Shown one piece after another: positions 29,053 to 45,876 of a DNA stretch of 64,000 nucleotides. Under the pieces are notes generated by a model. The model did not search any database. It was not told the origin of the DNA and saw only the letters and a program-made list of their open reading frames with translations. This stretch comes from an uncultured Candidatus Saccharibacteria bacterium (GTDB lineage Bacteria > Patescibacteriota > Doudnabacteria > UBA920 > O2-02-FULL-48-8). Position numbers and translations under genes: made by a program. The stretch is taken from contig CAZSDS010000001.1 in assembly GCA_964605735.1 (NCBI GenBank), positions 340,813 through 404,812 on the forward strand, in the 5' to 3' direction. Each line of letters begins with the position of its first letter. The first letter of the stretch is position 1.

Positions 29053-29721
29053 TTATTCTTTGATTATGTTCGGAAAATCCGTAAACACTCCGTCCACGCC
29101 CATTCCCTTGGCAATCAGGTAATCATGGATGCTGTTAACAGTCCAAGCGAAAACCTTTACACCCAGGCGCCTCATGGATTTCATGTGCACCGGAGTGACC
29201 AAAGTATGAACCGGATGGATTGAGTAAAGATCTAACTGTTTGGCTACTGCCATCATGAATGGCCACATGTAGCCCATTTTTGGACCGATTATGAATCCCA
29301 GGGGGATTTTTCCGTCCAAAGCCCTAACCTTCTTCAAAACAACCGGGTTGTTTGAGGAGATTAAAACCTTGTGCGGAAAACTTTTCACGGCATCCAAAAC
29401 TGCTTGTTCCATGCCATCGACTTTCAGCTCCAAATTCAAAGGCAATTTTGCTGCCTGCAAAAATTCGTTCAGTTCTGGAATTTCACGGCCTTCTTTTTTG
29501 GAGATGTTCTTGACCTCCTCCAAAGTCAGGTCCGAAATTTTTCTGCGGTCGTCGTGCGTTCGGATTAGTGTGGGGTCGTGGATTATTACCACTTTACCAT
29601 CCTTGGTCAGGCGCAAATCCGCCTCAACCATCTGAACGCCCGCGTCGATTCCTGCTTGTAAAGAACCTATCGTGTTTTCCGGGGCCAAACCCGCGGCCCC
29701 GCGATGCCCGATAATCAGCAT
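29053..29721 (-). CDS. glycerophosphodiester phosphodiesterase family protein inserted between rplC and rplD
   Basis: Starts MLIIGHRGAAGLAPENT (GDPD HR(G) motif); catalytic E/D/H pattern. ATG 29719-29721 is 1 nt after the rplC stop and the gene ends 1 nt before rplD. Confidence 0.8.
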   Translation of the reverse strand: MLIIGHRGAAGLAPENTIGSLQAGIDAGVQMVEADLRLTKDGKVVIIHDPTLIRTHDDRRKISDLTLEEVKNISKKEGREIPELNEFLQAAKLPLNLELKVDGMEQAVLDAVKSFPHKVLISSNNPVVLKKVRALDGKIPLGFIIGPKMGYMWPFMMAVAKQLDLYSIHPVHTLVTPVHMKSMRRLGVKVFAWTVNSIHDYLIAKGMGVDGVFTDFPNIIKE

Positions 29722-29722
29722 A

Positions 29723-30322
29723 TTAAACAGTCTGGATTTTGACCATTGCACCCGGTGCGCCAGGGATCGCTCCTTTAATCGCAATCAAATTCTTGGCTGT
29801 ATCTATATCAACAACTTCCAGATTCTTTACGGTTCTTGAACCGGCCATGTGGCCTGCCATGCGCAAACCTTTTCTGACGTGCTGTGGGAAGCGCATACCA
29901 ATGGAACCTACGGCGCGAGGGTGGTCGTGGCCGTGTGAAGCCGGCTGTCCGCCGAATCCATATCTCTTGATAGGCCCAGCAAAACCGCGCCCCTTCATCT
30001 GGGAAGTAACTTTCACAACATCGCCAACAGCAAAGGTGTCAACTTTGATTTCCTGTCCTTTTTCAAATTTGGCGTCAGCTGGAATTCTGAATTCAACAAG
30101 TCTGGCGAAATTCTTCATGCCCTTCAAGTGGCCTGCAGTAGCCTTGTTCTGGCTCTTCTTTTTGCCAAAGCCAACCTGCACTGCTGTGTACTTGTCCTTA
30201 TCAGCGGTTCTGACCTGGGTAACCTTAACTGGAGATGCCTTCAAAATCGTAACAGGAACGACTTTGCCGTCCTTGTTGAAGATTTGAGACATATGAAGTT
30301 TTTCTGCGACGATGAATTTCAT
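29723..30322 (-). CDS. rplC: 50S ribosomal protein L3
   Basis: Starts MKFIVAEKLHMSQIF (ATG 30320-30322 verified); L3 family. Confidence 0.93.
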   Translation of the reverse strand: MKFIVAEKLHMSQIFNKDGKVVPVTILKASPVKVTQVRTADKDKYTAVQVGFGKKKSQNKATAGHLKGMKNFARLVEFRIPADAKFEKGQEIKVDTFAVGDVVKVTSQMKGRGFAGPIKRYGFGGQPASHGHDHPRAVGSIGMRFPQHVRKGLRMAGHMAGSRTVKNLEVVDIDTAKNLIAIKGAIPGAPGAMVKIQTV

Positions 30323-30582: not shown

Positions 30583-30903
30583 TTACATTTTAATCTCTAC
30601 ATCAACACCTGCCGGGAGGTTCAAATTTGAGAGGGCATCAATGGTCTTAGGTGTCGGGGTTGAGATATCAATCAATCTTTTGTGAACGCGCATTTCGAAT
30701 TGTTCGCGGGCATTCTTGTGGACGAAGGTCGAGCGAAGCACCGTATATTTGGTCTTTTCAGTCGGCAAAGGCACAGGACCAATGACTCCAGCCCCGGTTC
30801 GCTTTGCAGTGTCTACAATCTGTCGAGCGGACTGGTCAATGAGCTTATGGTCATAGGCTCTGATTTTGATTCTTATTCTGGCTGTATCGGTTGCCTGCGG
30901 CAT
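30583..30903 (-). CDS. rpsJ: 30S ribosomal protein S10
   Basis: 106 aa collinear with bacterial S10 ([16 protein letters not shown]...). Confidence 0.95.
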
Positions 30904-31108: not shown

Positions 31109-32290
31109 TTATTTGTTGATCTTCAATACCACTCCAGCACCTACGGTGTGACCGCCTTCGCGAACTGCGAAGCGCATCTTTTCTTCCAAAGCAACTGGGG
31201 TAATAAGTTTGATGTTCAAGGTAACGGTGTCACCCGGCATGACCATTTCCTGGCCTTCTGGGAGGATAACTTCACCGGTTACGTCAGTGGTTCGGATGTA
31301 GAACTGAGGCTTGTATCCCTTGAAGAAAGGAGTGTGGCGTCCGCCTTCTTCCTTGGTCAAGATATATACTTCAGCTTCAAATTCAGTGTGAGGAGTAACT
31401 GATCCTGGCTTTGCCAAAACCTGTCCGCGTTCAACATCTTCCTTTTTTGTACCACGGAGCAAAATACCTGCGTTGTCACCAGCTTGACCCTTGTCCAACT
31501 GCTTGTTGAACATTTCGATACCAGTCACAACAGTCTTGGTGGTTGGGCGGATACCAACGATTTCGATTTCATCGTTAAGGTTGATAACGCCTCTTTCAAT
31601 ACGGCCGGTAACTACGGTACCGCGGCCTTCAATTGAGAAGATGTCTTCGATAGGCATCAAGAAAGGCTTGTCAGTTTCTCGAACTGGGTCTGGGATGTAA
31701 GTATCAAGAGCTTCAACCAGTTTGGTGATTGATTCTTCGTACTTGGCATCGCCTTCGATAGCCTTCAAAGCGGATCCACGGATAATAGGTGTTTCTTTTC
31801 CTGGGAATCCGTATTTGGTCAAAAGATCGCGGACTTCTTCTTCAACCAAGTCCAAAAGCTCTGGATCTTCAACCATATCGCACTTGTTGAGGTAAACAAC
31901 AATGTATGGAACGCCGACCTGCTTTGCGAGCAAAATGTGTTCGCGGGTCTGAGGCATTGGGCCGTCAGCAGCAGACACAACCAAGATGGAGCCGTCCATT
32001 TGGGCAGCACCGGTGATCATGTTCTTAATGTAGTCAGCGTGACCTGGACAGTCGACGTGAGCGTAGTGGCGCTTGTCAGACTGGTACTCGACGTGAGTGG
32101 TATTGATGGTAATACCACGAGCCTTTTCTTCTGGAGCGTTGTCGATTTGTGCGTAGTCGCGCTCCTGGGCAAAACCCTTCTTAGCCAAAACGTGGGTGAT
32201 GGCGGCAGTCAAAGTGGTCTTACCATGGTCAACGTGACCGATGGTACCGACGTTGACGTGCACTTTGGAACGGTCAAATTTGTCAGCCAT
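31109..32290 (-). CDS. tuf: elongation factor Tu
   Basis: Starts [27 protein letters not shown] (ATG 32288-32290 verified); G1-G5 GTPase motifs. The 13-codon upstream extension in the ORF track is rejected. Confidence 0.97.
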
Positions 32291-32646
32291 TGTATTCCTT
32301 GGGCACGTACAGCTTCTTAGGCTTGTCATTCTGATCTAAGCGAAACCTGCCTATATTGTGGCGGTCTCTCCTGTCTTTGCAGACAGATTTAGCCAAGTTC
32401 AGGATGACTCCAAAACCTTAAAAGCCTCTGTGCGAGTTAATTTATAAGCTTACTAATTATAAGAGAAATCCTTGAATATTGCAAGGATAATTTCTCTTGC
32501 AGTAAAAGCGCCGCTTGTTTCCAAGAAGCCGCTATATAGTAATATTTTCATCCGACATCGTCAACTATAGACCTAAGGCGCGCTCTTTTTTGTTTTGACA
32601 CCAGTCGTTCAACTGGTTTATGCTTCCAGGCATAAGGAGGGTCCTT

Positions 32647-32949
32647 ATGGGAGATTTCGGAACTTTTGTCTTGATGCTTGTGGTGACATCCGGCCTCGGC
32701 TACAGGTCAGTTCAGCTCGATTGTCTAGCTGAACGGGGCCAGCTGGAGAACATCTCACGGGCAAACAAGCTTGCCGGCATGTTCCAAATCTGCATGGTGT
32801 TGACGGTGGCCACAAGCATCAAAATGTGCTACAGCCACATCGCTGACACAGTTCTGATGGCTGTTGCCATGAGCGCTTTGGTGGCTGTCGAAATCTTCTC
32901 CCTGTGGTTCTACGCCATTCGTGGCGTGGTCCTCGACTACGAACCATGA
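32647..32949 (+). CDS. hypothetical small membrane protein (3 predicted TM), opposite strand, between fusA and tuf
   Basis: AAGGAGG at 32634-32640 with 6-nt spacer to ATG 32647; 100 aa hydrophobic product; own terminator at 32962-32994. Confidence 0.55.
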   Translation: MGDFGTFVLMLVVTSGLGYRSVQLDCLAERGQLENISRANKLAGMFQICMVLTVATSIKMCYSHIADTVLMAVAMSALVAVEIFSLWFYAIRGVVLDYEP

Positions 32950-32961
32950 CCCGCTCTCATG

Positions 32962-32994
32962 ACCTGCCCCGTCCCTGGCAGGTCTTTTTTTCTG
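32962..32994 (+). terminator. rho-independent terminator of the 32647 gene
   Basis: gacctgcc-ccgtccct-ggcaggtc followed by TTTTTTTCT. Confidence 0.7.
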
Positions 32995-33020
32995 AATAAC
33001 ATCGCAACCATAGTGGACGC

Positions 33021-33055
33021 AAAAAAACAAGCCCTTCGCAGGGGCTTGTTTTTAG
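33021..33055. terminator. bidirectional terminator 3' of fusA
   Basis: caagccc-ttcgca-ggggcttg hairpin flanked by A7 and T5. Confidence 0.65.
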
Positions 33056-33056
33056 T

Positions 33057-35180
33057 TTAGCTTACTTGACCGACGCGCTGTTTGCCTGCGCCTTCAATGA
33101 TCTTTTCAGCAACATTTCTTGGGACTTCTTCGTAGTGGTCGAATTCCATGGTGTATGAGGCCTGACCCTGGGACATGGATCGGATCTGTGTTGCGTATCC
33201 GAACATTTCAGCCAACGGCACTTCCGCATCCACAACCTTCAGGTTGCCGCGGTCAGTCATTTCGTTGATTTTGCCGCGCTTTGCATTCAAGTCACCAATC
33301 ACATCACCTAAAGATGACTCAGGAGTCAAAACTTCAACTTTCATGATCGGTTCAAGCAATACTGGAGTTGCTTTTCTCACGCCTTCCTGGAAAGCCTGTG
33401 ATCCGGCAATTTTGAATGCGATTTCAGATGAGTCAACTTCGTGGTATGAGCCGTCTGTCAAAGTCACTTTTGCGTCAATCAACGGATATCCGGCAATAAC
33501 GCCTCGTTCTGTTGCTTCCTTGATACCCTTTTCAACGGCCGGGATATATTCTCGAGGAATGACACCGCCAACGATTTCGTTAACGAATTCAAAACCTTTG
33601 CCAGCTTCATTAGGTTCAACAGTGATGACAACGTGTCCGTATTGTCCGCGCCCACCGGTCTGTCTGATGTATTTGTGTTCTGCTTCAGCTTTGCCTTTGA
33701 TGGTTTCGCGGTAAGCAACCTGCGGTCTGCCGACATTCGCTTCAACTTTAAACTCGCGCTTCATGCGGTCAACCAGAATTTCCAAATGCAATTCACCCAT
33801 GCCGGAAATCAATGTCTGGTTAACTTCTTCGTCAGTCTTAACTTTGAAGGTTGGGTCTTCTTCAGCCAGTTTTTGCAAAGCAATGCCCATTTTTTCCTGG
33901 TCTGCCTTGGTCTTAGGCTCAATAGCTACGGAAATGACCGGCTCTGGGAATTTAATGGCTTCCAGCTGGATTGGGCTGTCCACTGCACAAAGCGTATCGC
34001 CAGTGAAAGTTTCCTTTGGCCCTACCAATGCAGCAATATCTCCGGCATACACTACTTTAACGTCTTCACGTTTGTCAGCATGCATTCGGACAATGCGCCC
34101 TACGCGCTCTTTGTTGCCGCTTCTTGTGTTCAAAACGTATGAACCTGCTTCCAGTTTGCCGCTGTAAACGCGGAAGAAAGCAAGTTTACCCACGAATGGG
34201 TCAGTCGCAATTTTAAATGCCAACGCAGTAAGAGGCTCTGAGTCAGATGGCTTTCTAACAATGGCTTCTCCGGTCTTTGGGTTGGTGCCTTTGATGTCGC
34301 CGCGGTCAACCGGACTTGGCAGGAAGTTGGTCACTCCGTCAAGCAGGGTTTGTACAATAATACCGCGTCCGTCTCCGCCGAATACCGGGAAGAAAGTGCC
34401 GGATTGGGTTGATTTTCTGATTGCGGACAAAAACTCCTGCTCAGTCAATTCTTCCCCACCGAGATACTTTTCCATCAAGGCGTCATCCGATTCAACAACT
34501 TTCTCCATCAGCCTCTGGCGGTATTCTTTTGCCTTCTCAAGCATGTCAGCCGGGATTTCCCCCACTGTAAAGTCGCGGTCAGAAAATTCCTTGTAGGTGT
34601 AAGCCTTCATGGAAACCAGGTCAACCACGCCGCAAATATCCTTTTCAAATCCAATTGGCAATTGCACAGGATAGGCGTTTGGTGACAATCGCTTGTGGAT
34701 TGCATCCAGGGACTTATAAAAGTCGCCGCCGGTTTGGTTGATTTTGTTGACGAAGCACATACGAGGCACGCCGTACTTGTCAGCCTGGCGCCACACGGTT
34801 TCGGACTGAGGTTCAACGCCCATCTTGCCGTCAAAAACCACAATAGCACCATCAAGCACGCGCAAAGAACGCTCCACTTCCACAGTGAAGTCTACGTGTC
34901 CAGGCGTATCGATAATGTTGATCTTGTGCTTAACGTCGCCTCCAAGCTTAATGTACTTGGGGATCCAGAAACAGGTAACAGCTGCCGCAGTAATGGTAAT
35001 GCCGCGTTCGCGTTCCTGTTCCATCCAGTCAGTGGTGGTTGCGCCCTCGTGTACCGCGCCAATCTTATGAGTCAGCCCGGTGTTGTATAGAATACCTTCG
35101 GTAGTTGTGGTTTTACCTGCGTCAATGTGCGCGATAATCCCGATGTTACGCGTGGATTCTATTGGATATTCTCTAGCCAT
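33057..35180 (-). CDS. fusA: elongation factor G
   Basis: 707 aa; [10 protein letters not shown]1 motif, domains II-V of EF-G. Confidence 0.97.
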
Positions 35181-35251: not shown

Positions 35252-35497
35252 GTGAAACGGATCTCATCGGTTCTGGCTGTTGTCGGGCTGGTTCTTACCC
35301 TGGTTTGGGTCCTGAATGACCCAATGGATGAAGAAACTGCCCTGTTCCGGTCCGGAGCATCAACTGAAGAAGTTCTGGCCGCACGGGAGACTTACGTCCC
35401 GCCGGAACGACCGACTTGGATGCTGATCGCCGGAATCGCTTTGATGATTCCGCTCGGCTTCTCGTTTCTGCGCCGGCAACTCGATCACCGGCGCTGA
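35252..35497 (+). CDS. hypothetical small membrane protein (2 TM), opposite strand, in rpsG-fusA spacer
   Basis: AGGAGG 35241-35246, GTG start 35252; 81 aa with two hydrophobic helices; terminator 35510-35540. Confidence 0.5.
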   Translation: MKRISSVLAVVGLVLTLVWVLNDPMDEETALFRSGASTEEVLAARETYVPPERPTWMLIAGIALMIPLGFSFLRRQLDHRR

Positions 35498-35509
35498 AAA
35501 ACCGATCTT

Positions 35510-35540
35510 GGGTGTGCAACTTTGCACACCCATTTTTTTA
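35510..35540 (+). terminator. rho-independent terminator of the 35252 gene
   Basis: gggtgtgc-aacttt-gcacaccc followed by ATTTTTTTA. Confidence 0.7.
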
Positions 35541-36023
35541 TCGTCTCTGGAATCTTGCGAAGTGAGCGAATGCCTTGTTGGCTTCAGCCATCTTGTGCAC
35601 GTCTTCTCGCTTCTTAATAGCCGCTCCAAGCTTGTTGTATGCTTCCATCAATTCTTCGCCGAGCTTTTCAGCCATTGGCTTGCCCTTTTTGCTTCGGGCA
35701 GCAACAATAATCCATTTCATACCCAAAGAAGTTTTTCTTGGTTCCATAACTTCCATAGGGACCTGATAGTTGGCGCCACCGATTCGGCGGCCCTTAACTT
35801 CCAATATTGGGGAAACGTTTTTGATTGCCTGTTCGAAAACCGCTTTTGGGTCAGTCTTCATTTTTTCTTCAATAAAATCCAAAGCTCCGTAAACAATCCT
35901 CTGGGCGGTTGATTTCTTTCCGCGTTCCATAATGTAGTTTATGAACTTGGAAATCTTTACGGAATTGTACTTTATGTCTGGGTTAACCGGATGTTTCTTG
36001 TATGCTCTTGCTTTTCTTGGCAT
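35538..36023 (-). CDS. rpsG: 30S ribosomal protein S7
   Basis: 161 aa S7 family. Confidence 0.95.
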
Positions 36024-36027
36024 TGCT

Positions 36028-36441
36028 TTATGCTTTCTTTACTCCGTACTTACTTCGGCTGCGCTTTCGACCTTCTACGCCGGCGGCATCAAGTTTGCCA
36101 CGAACAATGTGATAGCGGACACCTGGCAAGTCTTTTACACGACCGCCGCGGATCATGACTACGCTGTGTTCCTGCAGGTTGTGGCCAATGCCTGGGATGT
36201 ATGCCAGAACTTCCATGCCGTTTGTCAAACGGACACGGGCAACTTTTCTGATAGCTGAGTTTGGCTTCTTAGGGGTAACTGTATAAACACGAACACAGAC
36301 ACCGCGCTTGAACGGAGTGCCTTTGTCAAAAGTGAACGGACGGTTCTTAAGCAGGTTCAAACCGCGCTGGAGAGCAGGGCTCTTTGAGCGGGAAGTCTGT
36401 TTTGTTCGTCCTTTTCGAACTAATTGGTTAACTGTAGGCAT
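36028..36441 (-). CDS. rpsL: 30S ribosomal protein S12
   Basis: 137 aa S12 family ([12 protein letters not shown]...). Confidence 0.95.
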
Positions 36442-43705: not shown

Positions 43706-43966
43706 TTACGCGGTGCTTGTGCGTCTTGCCTGGCTGAGCGCAGTCAGTCTGGCAAGTATCTCCTGGGAGCGTTTTTGGTCGCTTTCCTTGAGGTTCCGGA
43801 GACGCTCAATATCAACCTGGTTCGTGGCCTGGAGGTCGCTGATGCGCGACTCCAAGTGAGTTCTGTAATTCTTGGGAAGACCATCCTTTTTGGCTTTCTC
43901 CAGCTGGCGCTGAAGTTTTTGAATTTCCCTGGTGCGATCTTCAATCGCATGCTCAAGCCGCGGCAT
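43706..43966 (-). CDS. hypothetical coiled-coil protein
   Basis: 86 aa, heptad-rich (LQRQLEKAKK..., ERLRNLKESDQKRSQEIL); SD AAGGAGG 7 nt upstream of ATG. Confidence 0.55.
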   Translation of the reverse strand: MPRLEHAIEDRTREIQKLQRQLEKAKKDGLPKNYRTHLESRISDLQATNQVDIERLRNLKESDQKRSQEILARLTALSQARRTSTA

Positions 43967-44277: not shown

Positions 44278-44472
44278 TCAGTCTCCCCAGGACCACAGTG
44301 GCCTGCATTTTCCCGGATCAGGGTGCAAAAAAAGCATGCAGCAGGGCCCCAGGGCGAGCACATGGGGATAAGCCACCAGCCCGCAGGAACAACACCTAAC
44401 CTTCCCGTCCTTGGTAGGTGCAGTTTTTTCATGCGTCCCAATCGCAGTTCCCGAAATCTGATCAGTCTTCAT
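44278..44472 (-). CDS. candidate small Cys/His-rich protein (64 aa)
   Basis: AAGGAGG with 5-nt spacer before ATG (44470-44472): MKTDQISGTAIGTHEKTAPTKDGKVRCCSCGLVAYPHVLALGPCCMLFLHPDPGKCRPLWSWGD; 6 Cys; GC-rich codons; dedicated terminator. Confidence 0.45.
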   Translation of the reverse strand: MKTDQISGTAIGTHEKTAPTKDGKVRCCSCGLVAYPHVLALGPCCMLFLHPDPGKCRPLWSWGD

Positions 44473-44910: not shown

Positions 44911-45876
44911 CTACTCGAGTTTGTGCATCTTGTCCAGGAAGGAATTCAGCTCTTCCTGGGAGAAAAATTCGATGGTAATTTTACCTGACTCTCCATTCTT
45001 TTGAACGCGAACCTTGGTCCCTAATTTCCCCCGCAATTCAGATTCAATAGCCTGCAGTTCAGGGTCGGAGTTGGGGCGCTGACCTTTAATTTGCTTAGGC
45101 CTTTCCATGATCTCACGAACCCGGTCCTCCACTTGCCTGACTGTCAGGTTCTCTGCTTTTATCATGTCGAACATAGCCAGCTGTTTTTCCATCCCAATCA
45201 ATCCCAAGATGGCCCGGCCGTGTCCTTCGCTGATCTCTGCTTCCGCAATTGCCCTCTGAATTTTCAATGGCAAATTCAGCAAACGAATCATGTTTGTGAC
45301 TGTGGTGCGGCCTTTACCGACTTTCTTGGCAACTTCTTCTTGAGTAAGTTTATACTGGTCAATCAACTGCTGGTAAGCCTGGGCCTCTTCAATCGGATCC
45401 AGGTTATGACGCTGTATGTTTTCGATCAACGCAAGCTCGAGCTTCTGCTGTTCTTCCATTGCATCGCGGACAATTGCCGGGACTTTTGTCAGGCCGGCTA
45501 ATTGCGAAGCGCGCCAGCGCCGTTCACCCACAATGATCTGGTAATTGTCGTCTTTGGTTGGAACAACTACAAGCGGCTGTAAAATGCCATGCTCTTTGAT
45601 GGAATTAGCCAGCTCCTGCAAATATTCTTCTTTGAAAACTTTGCGGGGCTGCCATGGATTTGGCTGGATCTTACTGACTTCAATTTCAGTAAGATTCTGG
45701 CCGGCTGGAGAGGCTGGCTGTGGAGTTGTCGCTGGCTGGTGGATTGGCTCAGGTGAGCTGATTGTCGGTGTTGGGGCAGGAGTTGTGCTTTGTGTTTCGT
45801 CCATATTAAGAGAGCCTTTTAGGCTTTGATAAGGCTGTAATTCTAAATCATCTTGTAAATCACTGGCGTCTGGCAT
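44911..45876 (-). CDS. parB: ParB/Spo0J-family partition protein with P/T-rich N-terminal extension (no adjacent parA)
   Basis: ParB N-domain motif VGERRWRA, HTH region and C-terminal dimerisation region; the first ~80 aa are low-complexity P/T/S-rich. Confidence 0.85.
   Translation of the reverse strand: MPDASDLQDDLELQPYQSLKGSLNMDETQSTTPAPTPTISSPEPIHQPATTPQPASPAGQNLTEIEVSKIQPNPWQPRKVFKEEYLQELANSIKEHGILQPLVVVPTKDDNYQIIVGERRWRASQLAGLTKVPAIVRDAMEEQQKLELALIENIQRHNLDPIEEAQAYQQLIDQYKLTQEEVAKKVGKGRTTVTNMIRLLNLPLKIQRAIAEAEISEGHGRAILGLIGMEKQLAMFDMIKAENLTVRQVEDRVREIMERPKQIKGQRPNSDPELQAIESELRGKLGTKVRVQKNGESGKITIEFFSQEELNSFLDKMHKLE

Follow-up and report, generated by a model that had tools for sequence, protein, structure and literature searches.

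Between fusA and tuf, the genes for elongation factors EF-G and EF-Tu, a stretch of DNA from an uncultured Candidatus Saccharibacteria bacterium carries a small open reading frame (ORF) on the opposite strand, at 32647-32949, which we call ORF B. The stretch comprises 64,000 nucleotides (assembly GCA_964605735.1, contig CAZSDS010000001.1, positions 340,813 to 404,812 of the forward strand) and is referred to as the window; all coordinates are those of the window unless a locus is named. ORF B is probably a genuine lineage-specific gene for a small membrane protein, carried as accessory cargo in a hotspot of gene turnover between fusA and tuf. Comparison with relatives shows that the content of this slot, between the fusA terminator and the tuf promoter, is replaced lineage by lineage with unrelated small genes. 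Judged by the signals around it, ORF B looks like a real plus-strand gene that is separately promoted and terminated. The features on which this rests are the following.

32647-32949, plus strand: ORF B, ATG at 32647, TGA at 32949, 100 aa with three hydrophobic segments.
32634-32640, plus strand: Shine-Dalgarno sequence AAGGAGG of ORF B, 6 nt upstream of the ATG.
32595-32624, plus strand: promoter-like site TTGACA-18-TATGCT, 10 of 12 consensus matches, putative promoter of ORF B.
32631-32649, plus strand: hairpin CAUAAGGA-GGG-UCCUUAUG, 8 bp, pairing the Shine-Dalgarno sequence with the start codon.
32961-32991, plus strand: intrinsic terminator of ORF B, a hairpin at 32961-32984 (8-bp stem, six GC pairs) followed by T7.
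33023-33053, both strands: bidirectional terminator after fusA, a hairpin with 12-nt perfect arms between A7 and T5.
32463-33041, no strand assigned: lineage-specific variable segment, 579 bp without DNA similarity to relatives.
33057-35180, minus strand: fusA, ending at 33057.
31109-32290, minus strand: tuf, starting at 32290.

The str/S10 block of ribosomal genes occupies the minus strand of the window, and its fusA-tuf spacer measures 766 bp. An earlier inspection of the letters, the sequence-only reading, had put this interval at about 770 bp and had placed in it a plus-strand ORF of about 100 aa with three hydrophobic segments and an AAGGAGG Shine-Dalgarno sequence, a dedicated terminator (32962-32994) and a bidirectional terminator behind fusA (33021-33055). 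All of these features were found, with coordinates agreeing within 1-2 nt: the ORF is present as described, the hairpin and T7 run of its terminator lie at 32961-32991, and the bidirectional terminator lies at 33023-33053. No tRNA was found in the spacer, nor any match to Rfam beyond a sub-threshold Thr_leader score on the terminator hairpin. By its EF-G the window falls among the Candidate Phyla Radiation (CPR)/Patescibacteria, where the nearest species representatives are labelled Candidatus Saccharibacteria (77-79% identity), and closer metagenomic relatives bear the labels Saccharibacteria or Doudnabacteria. A literature search returned nothing on insertions in CPR str operons.

Several properties speak for ORF B as a coding frame. 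The heptamer AAGGAGG occurs five times in 128 kb (the window, both strands), and four of the five copies are positioned 5-7 nt before a start codon; two of these four belong to antisense ORFs, namely ORF B and the ORF A described below. The codon-usage log-likelihood of ORF B is 0.226 bits per codon, compared with 0.27 +/- 0.07 for 39 long genes; no out-of-frame shadow ORF of at least 80 aa, 59 in all, scores above 0.126. Its GC content of 0.52-0.535 stands against 0.375-0.40 in the non-coding region 32300-32600. The hydrophobic segments span residues ~4-19, 42-62 and 67-90; among random ORFs of at least 80 aa, only 0.3% reach its GRAVY value of 0.82 and 0.8% contain two or more such segments. 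The product, which includes the stretches SVQLDCLAER and ANKLAGMFQICMVLTVATSIK, ends in a net acidic C-terminus (...RGVVLDYEP). Taken jointly, the Shine-Dalgarno sequence, the gene-like codons, the hydrophobicity and a terminator usable on the plus strand only, 12 nt past the stop codon, are far beyond chance.

Signals for separate expression surround the frame. From the TTGACA-18-TATGCT site, the RNA is predicted to start at about 32631, which would place the hairpin that pairs Shine-Dalgarno sequence and start codon right at the 5' terminus of the message. For the initiation region the folding energy is -8.7 kcal/mol, as against -2.5 +/- 2.3 for 44 long genes, one of which is equally stable. 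The 366-nt RNA as a whole is more stably folded than any of 100 shuffles (z = -4.2) and contains a 13-bp perfect long-range stem. On the other side of the ORF B terminator, the bidirectional terminator begins 3 nt past the fusA stop codon and presents T7 on the minus and T5 on the plus strand.

From these elements the following course of expression can be proposed. A sigma-70-like promoter at 32595-32624, divergent from tuf, would drive a monocistronic mRNA of about 360 nt that would end at the gene's own terminator (32961-32991). Translation would start from a perfect Shine-Dalgarno sequence that is partly masked by the hairpin, and would probably be low or conditional. The three-helix product would enter the inner membrane with its positively charged loop (residues 20-41) on the cytoplasmic side. 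We take the protein to belong to the envelope, to be dispensable and to be functionally unconnected with EF-G, EF-Tu and ORF A.

The ORF B protein is already in the public record (NCBI and Logan, on a 797-kb contig) as an unnamed prediction. Its 90% identity cluster has one further member, a 97%-identical copy on the 2.6-kb Logan contig L001, which derives from SRR26389779, represents a near-identical strain and is the sole relative of ORF B. Nothing beyond this same-species copy appeared in a word-indexed search of 5.8 billion proteins, in back-translated scans of metagenome and viral contigs or, as far as credible homologues are concerned, in an exhaustive phmmer search of 1.84 billion representatives. 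Likewise, tblastn gave no match in phage and plasmid collections, tblastn and tblastx gave none in the window and 22 related loci, and no family matched in Pfam, NCBIfam, PHROGs or PADLOC. By these searches ORF B is an orphan protein, confined to one species.

Some candidate affiliations were tried and rejected. The score for Pfam DUF401 (PF04165), 17.5 bits, stays under the gathering cut-off of 24. The sole borderline database match, to the protein P0004 (E = 5e-4), was judged spurious: P0004 has 2008 aa in tandem repeats of ~110 residues, and its E-value is an artefact because weak 20-28-bit alignments to each repeat add up. Four PPC domains are marked in P0004 by Pfam, which reports no PPC (PF04151) in ORF B. 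A class I holin (three transmembrane helices, ~95-110 aa) was dismissed as well, there being no PHROGs family at E up to 0.01 and no match in phage or viral DNA; as for a holin lysis cassette, the neighbours of ORF B are fusA and tuf with no endolysin, and its C-terminus is acidic, not basic.

Ten further lineages at 84-93% EF-G identity were compared, with gene maps for ten and DNA for eight of them. All ten keep a long fusA-tuf spacer, which measures 0.8-2.3 kb where the contig covers both ends; the shortest spacer of the clade set is the window's own. The contents of the spacer differ between lineages, with small, unrelated ORFs in every relative. According to blastn, homology between the window and its relatives runs through fusA to ~33042 and resumes at ~32462, at the -10 box of the tuf promoter, to continue through tuf. 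ORF B lies with all of its signals in the variable segment between these points, into which the first half of the fusA terminator also falls; tblastx against the related loci gave no similarity for the segment either. With the window included, eleven lineages combine the same two conserved flanking genes with differing content, as a hotspot is expected to do. In an all-against-all BLASTP of their slot ORFs, ORF B matched none, and only the pairs L082-L085 (a common N-terminal motif, pairwise E = 8e-5) and L208-L210 were linked. The lack of ORF B in relatives is true absence and not divergence past recognition: since ORF A retains 49% identity where EF-G stands at 86%, these relatives would have yielded a detectable homologue of ORF B.

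The slot holds 28 source-called ORFs in the relatives and 29 with ORF B, 24 of them antisense and five sense. The gene calls behind this tally were made by other groups, and some of the lineages counted are close relatives, such that the counts are not independent events. Within the slot, sense ORFs adjoin fusA and antisense ORFs adjoin tuf. No slot ORF of the relatives has a confident match in Pfam, PHROGs or PADLOC; one bears a weak HTH_17 (excisionase-type) mark. A positional analogue of ORF B exists in L083 and L084, where a 99-aa two-helix protein without similarity to ORF B has its own divergent promoter and terminator. A hydrophobic segment is present in seven of 26 insert ORFs, which by estimate is close to the ordinary proteome share; the slot is not specialised for membrane proteins.

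Further slot contents may be mentioned in their own right. L208 (6550-7389) and L210 (7090-7991) have in common an antisense two-gene pair, composed of a 62/63-aa protein (49% identity between the loci), which to the eye resembles ribbon-helix-helix proteins, and a partner of 211/229 aa (48% identity); the pair may be a toxin-antitoxin-type module. Small ORFs of L086 (7310-7558) and L087 (8648-8914), antisense and adjoining tuf, share an H-L-x2-C-x2-C motif that recalls the zinc-finger (zf-HC2) segment of anti-sigma factors, with no Pfam match.

Slot diversification would most likely proceed by recombination anchored in the conserved flanking genes. No footprint of a mobile element was seen: direct repeats do not flank the variable segment, and the inserts have a GC content close to that of the host, with no anomaly of composition. 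Searches of the slot with PHROGs, Pfam and PADLOC returned no integrase, phage or defence-system match. Chromosomal hotspots in which accessory genes turn over between conserved core genes have been described (Oliveira et al., 2017; PMC5635113), and the fusA-tuf slot resembles them in its core-gene bounds, in the rapid replacement of content at 84-93% EF-G identity, in the lack of an integrase or recognisable mobile element and in genes mostly of unknown function. Unlike those hotspots, it is tiny (0.6-2.3 kb, with one to six tiny genes), lies within an operon that normally ranks among the most conserved of bacteria and is strongly orientation-biased, 24 of 29 ORFs running antisense to the flanks. 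The cargo itself resembles other orphan small membrane proteins of bacteria, with ~100 aa, several hydrophobic helices, no detectable homologues and its own Shine-Dalgarno sequence, promoter and terminator; only the location differs.

A comparable small antisense gene, ORF A, lies in the preceding rpsG-fusA spacer. It and the remaining genes of the block are:

35252-35497, plus strand: ORF A, 81 aa, small membrane protein in the rpsG-fusA spacer, GTG start.
35538-36023, minus strand: rpsG.
36028-36441, minus strand: rpsL.
30583-30903, minus strand: rpsJ.

ORF A has AAGGAGG 5 nt upstream and a terminator at 35509-35532. It belongs to a family of 76-81 aa proteins, 47-50% identical in a four-member alignment (A2), in which the invariant loop motif DPMDEETALFRSGASTEEVLAARE (pattern DEET.L.R..A..EE..AARE) stands between two hydrophobic helices. 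One homologue (49% identity) occupies the same spacer in the same orientation in L086; others, P0125 and P0126, lie on two short ENA contigs, and the P0009 contig probably carries one too. The gene is patchy in the clade and always antisense in the rpsG-fusA spacer. It is absent from L082, L083, L085, L087, L208, L210 and the P0010 contig, which have rpsG-fusA gaps of 1-30 bp (22 bp in L082, the closest other lineage), and no antisense ORF is called in the 96-bp gap of L209.

The sequence-only reading had taken the two genes as linked, their occurrence in consecutive spacers being unlikely to be coincidental, and had proposed a profile-profile comparison and a survey of co-occurrence. Both went against it. 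The probability given by hhalign for ORF B against A2 is 0.06%, BLASTP finds no match at E<1, and the two genes do not co-occur: homologues of ORF A are found in relatives that lack ORF B (L086, P0125, P0126), and ORF B is found in no relative. Given these unrelated sequences and differing phyletic patterns, ORF A and ORF B are, on sequence grounds, independent acquisitions with different histories. The same reading had named, as an outcome that would speak against it, relatives that keep the long spacers and lack the ORF; this is what was observed for ORF B, although other antisense ORFs sit there.

It had further been claimed that the two genes break the str operon into separately terminated units. 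The split itself stood, with a strong fusA terminator and a tuf promoter of its own, whereas its attribution to ORFs A and B did not. The elements upstream of tuf are:

32456-32484, minus strand: tuf promoter TTGCAA-17-TATAAT, conserved, TTTACA-17-TATAAT in relatives.
32291-32455, minus strand: tuf 5' leader, ~165 nt, conserved, with a long hairpin.

The ORFs do not produce the split: lineages across the clade retain both the tuf promoter and a long spacer whatever the spacer contains, and long fusA-tuf spacings are general in CPR genomes. Among the loci L002-L081 of the genome collection, the median spacing is 643 bp in 23 CPR-labelled genomes as compared to 82 bp in 23 others (Mann-Whitney P = 5e-7). 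Since homology resumes at the conserved tuf promoter and ORF B lies inside the lineage-specific segment, this pattern of conservation makes it an ancestral trait of the clade that fusA is terminated, and tuf promoted, on its own; ORF B did not bring it about. The E. coli-type str operon is rpsL-rpsG-fusA-tufA, which the window matches in its four genes, their order and their common strand. It departs from that arrangement in its strong fusA terminator, its own tuf promoter with a leader of ~165 nt, a spacing of 766 bp (non-CPR median 82 bp) and the antisense gene inside. The conservation of str-type operon blocks has been documented (PMC6735719).

The hairpin of the tuf leader (GUCAUCCUGAACUUGGC ... 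GCUUAGAUCAGAAUGAC) has a folding z of -4.4, and RNAalifold on seven sequences yields 19 pairs, of which six, located apically, show compensatory changes. The leader has no Rfam match and may be an undescribed leader element of this CPR clade. Scanning metagenome contigs with a 16-nt motif from it returned mostly chance matches, the only true relatives being L125 and L152. Around the tuf -35 box lies an inverted repeat (32468-32488 in the window, 8406-8432 in L085, near 9270 in L087), whose arms vary by lineage (ATCCTTG/CAAGGAT, GACGGCTGC/GCAGCCGT, GCCC/GGGC); its loop is TTTACAAAA in common among the relatives and CAATATT in the window. Terminator and promoter appear to be combined in this element, which would shield tuf from transcription arriving from upstream.

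The sister strain provides the only comparison within ORF B. L001 and the window differ at 21 positions over 2.56 kb. ORF B is intact in L001 with six changes, three synonymous and three replacements (I48V, V51G, E99K), and its Shine-Dalgarno sequence and promoter are unchanged. The shared part of fusA has eight differences, all at third codon positions, and EF-G is identical. One difference falls in the 355 bp separating tuf from ORF B, and five fall in the 107 bp 3' of ORF B, none of them inside terminator stems. The resulting non-synonymous and synonymous distances of ORF B, dN ~0.013 and dS ~0.042, are compatible with weak purifying selection when read from this one pair of sequences, and are not proof of it.

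Several points weigh against a functional protein. When the spacer is shuffled by dinucleotides, 19% of the shuffles contain an ORF of 100 codons or more, as do 28% of Markov sequences; the length of ORF B is by itself not significant. Its promoter is a consensus match only, and promoter-like sites are no more frequent in the region than in shuffles. The structured initiation region could signal poor translation. A single-sequence AlphaFold model shows two long helices at low confidence (pTM 0.34). The dN/dS of ~0.35, with three of six changes non-synonymous, is not separable from neutrality (binomial P ~0.19), and purifying selection cannot be shown because there is no ORF B homologue outside one species. 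ORF B could be a young or decaying insert in which the gene signals linger, or a plus-strand transcription unit of which the RNA, or transcription itself (convergent with fusA read-through), is what matters, with the frame incidental. This explanation fits the chance-range length, the orphan status in all databases searched and a divergence from L001 (2.0% per site) that approaches the synonymous rate of fusA (~2.2%), and it would also accommodate the stable fold of the RNA, its 13-bp stem and the masked Shine-Dalgarno sequence. A non-coding RNA, however, has no need of a perfect Shine-Dalgarno sequence at optimal spacing, of codon usage above every shadow ORF or of a hydrophobic pattern found in less than 1% of random ORFs, which are unlikely to coincide by chance, and dN is lower than dS; we regard this explanation as unlikely, though the most serious rival to a lineage-specific membrane-protein gene.

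The masked start also recalls type I toxin mRNAs such as hok, tisB and fst, which ORF B resembles as a hydrophobic product with its Shine-Dalgarno sequence in a hairpin, a structured mRNA and a potential overlapping antisense transcript. ORF B might on that basis be a membrane-damaging toxin of a type I toxin-antitoxin-like module, its translation blocked by the SD-AUG hairpin together with an antisense RNA that read-through of the fusA terminator would supply. In support of this, it is a small hydrophobic orphan in an intergenic slot, its Shine-Dalgarno sequence and AUG are sequestered as a translation block would demand, any read-through of the fusA terminator would be wholly antisense to it, and the candidate toxin-antitoxin-like pair of L208 and L210 (fold by eye) sits in the same slot. 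Type I toxins, though, typically have fewer than 60 aa and one transmembrane helix; ORF B has three segments and, at 100 aa, roughly double the usual length, neither a cognate antisense RNA gene nor a promoter for an antitoxin RNA was identified, and PADLOC and Pfam give no match, all of which renders a toxin very improbable. Least credible of all is a linked pair of ORFs A and B selected to split and regulate the str operon. Each gene is antisense, is preceded by AAGGAGG and has a terminator to itself, and no other plus-strand gene lies in the first 36.7 kb, yet their sequences are unrelated and no relative carries them together, relatives that lack both ORFs still possess the tuf promoter and the post-fusA terminator, and long spacers are general in CPR genomes; the phyletic pattern largely refutes this idea. 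More speculatively, and with rather little probability, new genes could be born or taken up in the antisense slot beside the tuf promoter, which is strong and conserved, in which case ORF B would be very young, possibly arisen de novo from divergent transcription; alternatively, the antisense units could form a clade-wide insulator which, convergent with fusA read-through, uncouples EF-Tu from EF-G expression. Either would explain the antisense bias (24 of 29) and the hairpin around the tuf -35 box.

In itself ORF B contributes little beyond one more unnamed small CPR membrane protein, already called in public records. The wider relevance lies in its setting. In CPR bacteria the str operon, elsewhere usually compact, is divided into units with promoters and terminators of their own, and long spacers should not be presumed empty when CPR genomes are annotated. 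The fast turnover of tiny genes in the slot of this clade matters wherever fusA-tuf synteny is used as a marker, and the slot offers a place to seek young genes in very small genomes.

Other observations concern the surroundings of the locus. The ~50 genes predicted at 1-36700 are all on the minus strand, with ORF A and ORF B as the only exceptions. In CPR-labelled genomes the rpsG-fusA spacing is often enlarged as well. Many other CPR genomes have a small gene of 80-140 aa directly upstream of tuf on the same strand, with an N-terminal Phd/YefM-like segment (PF02604, weak, E = 0.006) and an acidic tail (L002 7742-8098, L003 7234-7605, L014, L017, L021-L025, L030, L038). Neither the window nor its close relatives have this gene, and the ORF B region was rejected as its remnant, no trace of it being present in the window. 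A gene for a glycerophosphodiester phosphodiesterase (GDPD) is inserted between rplC and rplD of the S10 operon at 29053-29784, on the same (minus) strand; L083-L085 and the P0010 contig conserve this insertion, and a GDPD gene follows rplC in L087 too. The two other ORFs led by AAGGAGG (43706-43966 and 44278-44472, minus strand) are likewise small and follow a ParB-like gene (44911-45876) in the downstream direction; one encodes an 86-aa coiled-coil-like protein and the other is a 64-aa Cys-rich ORF.

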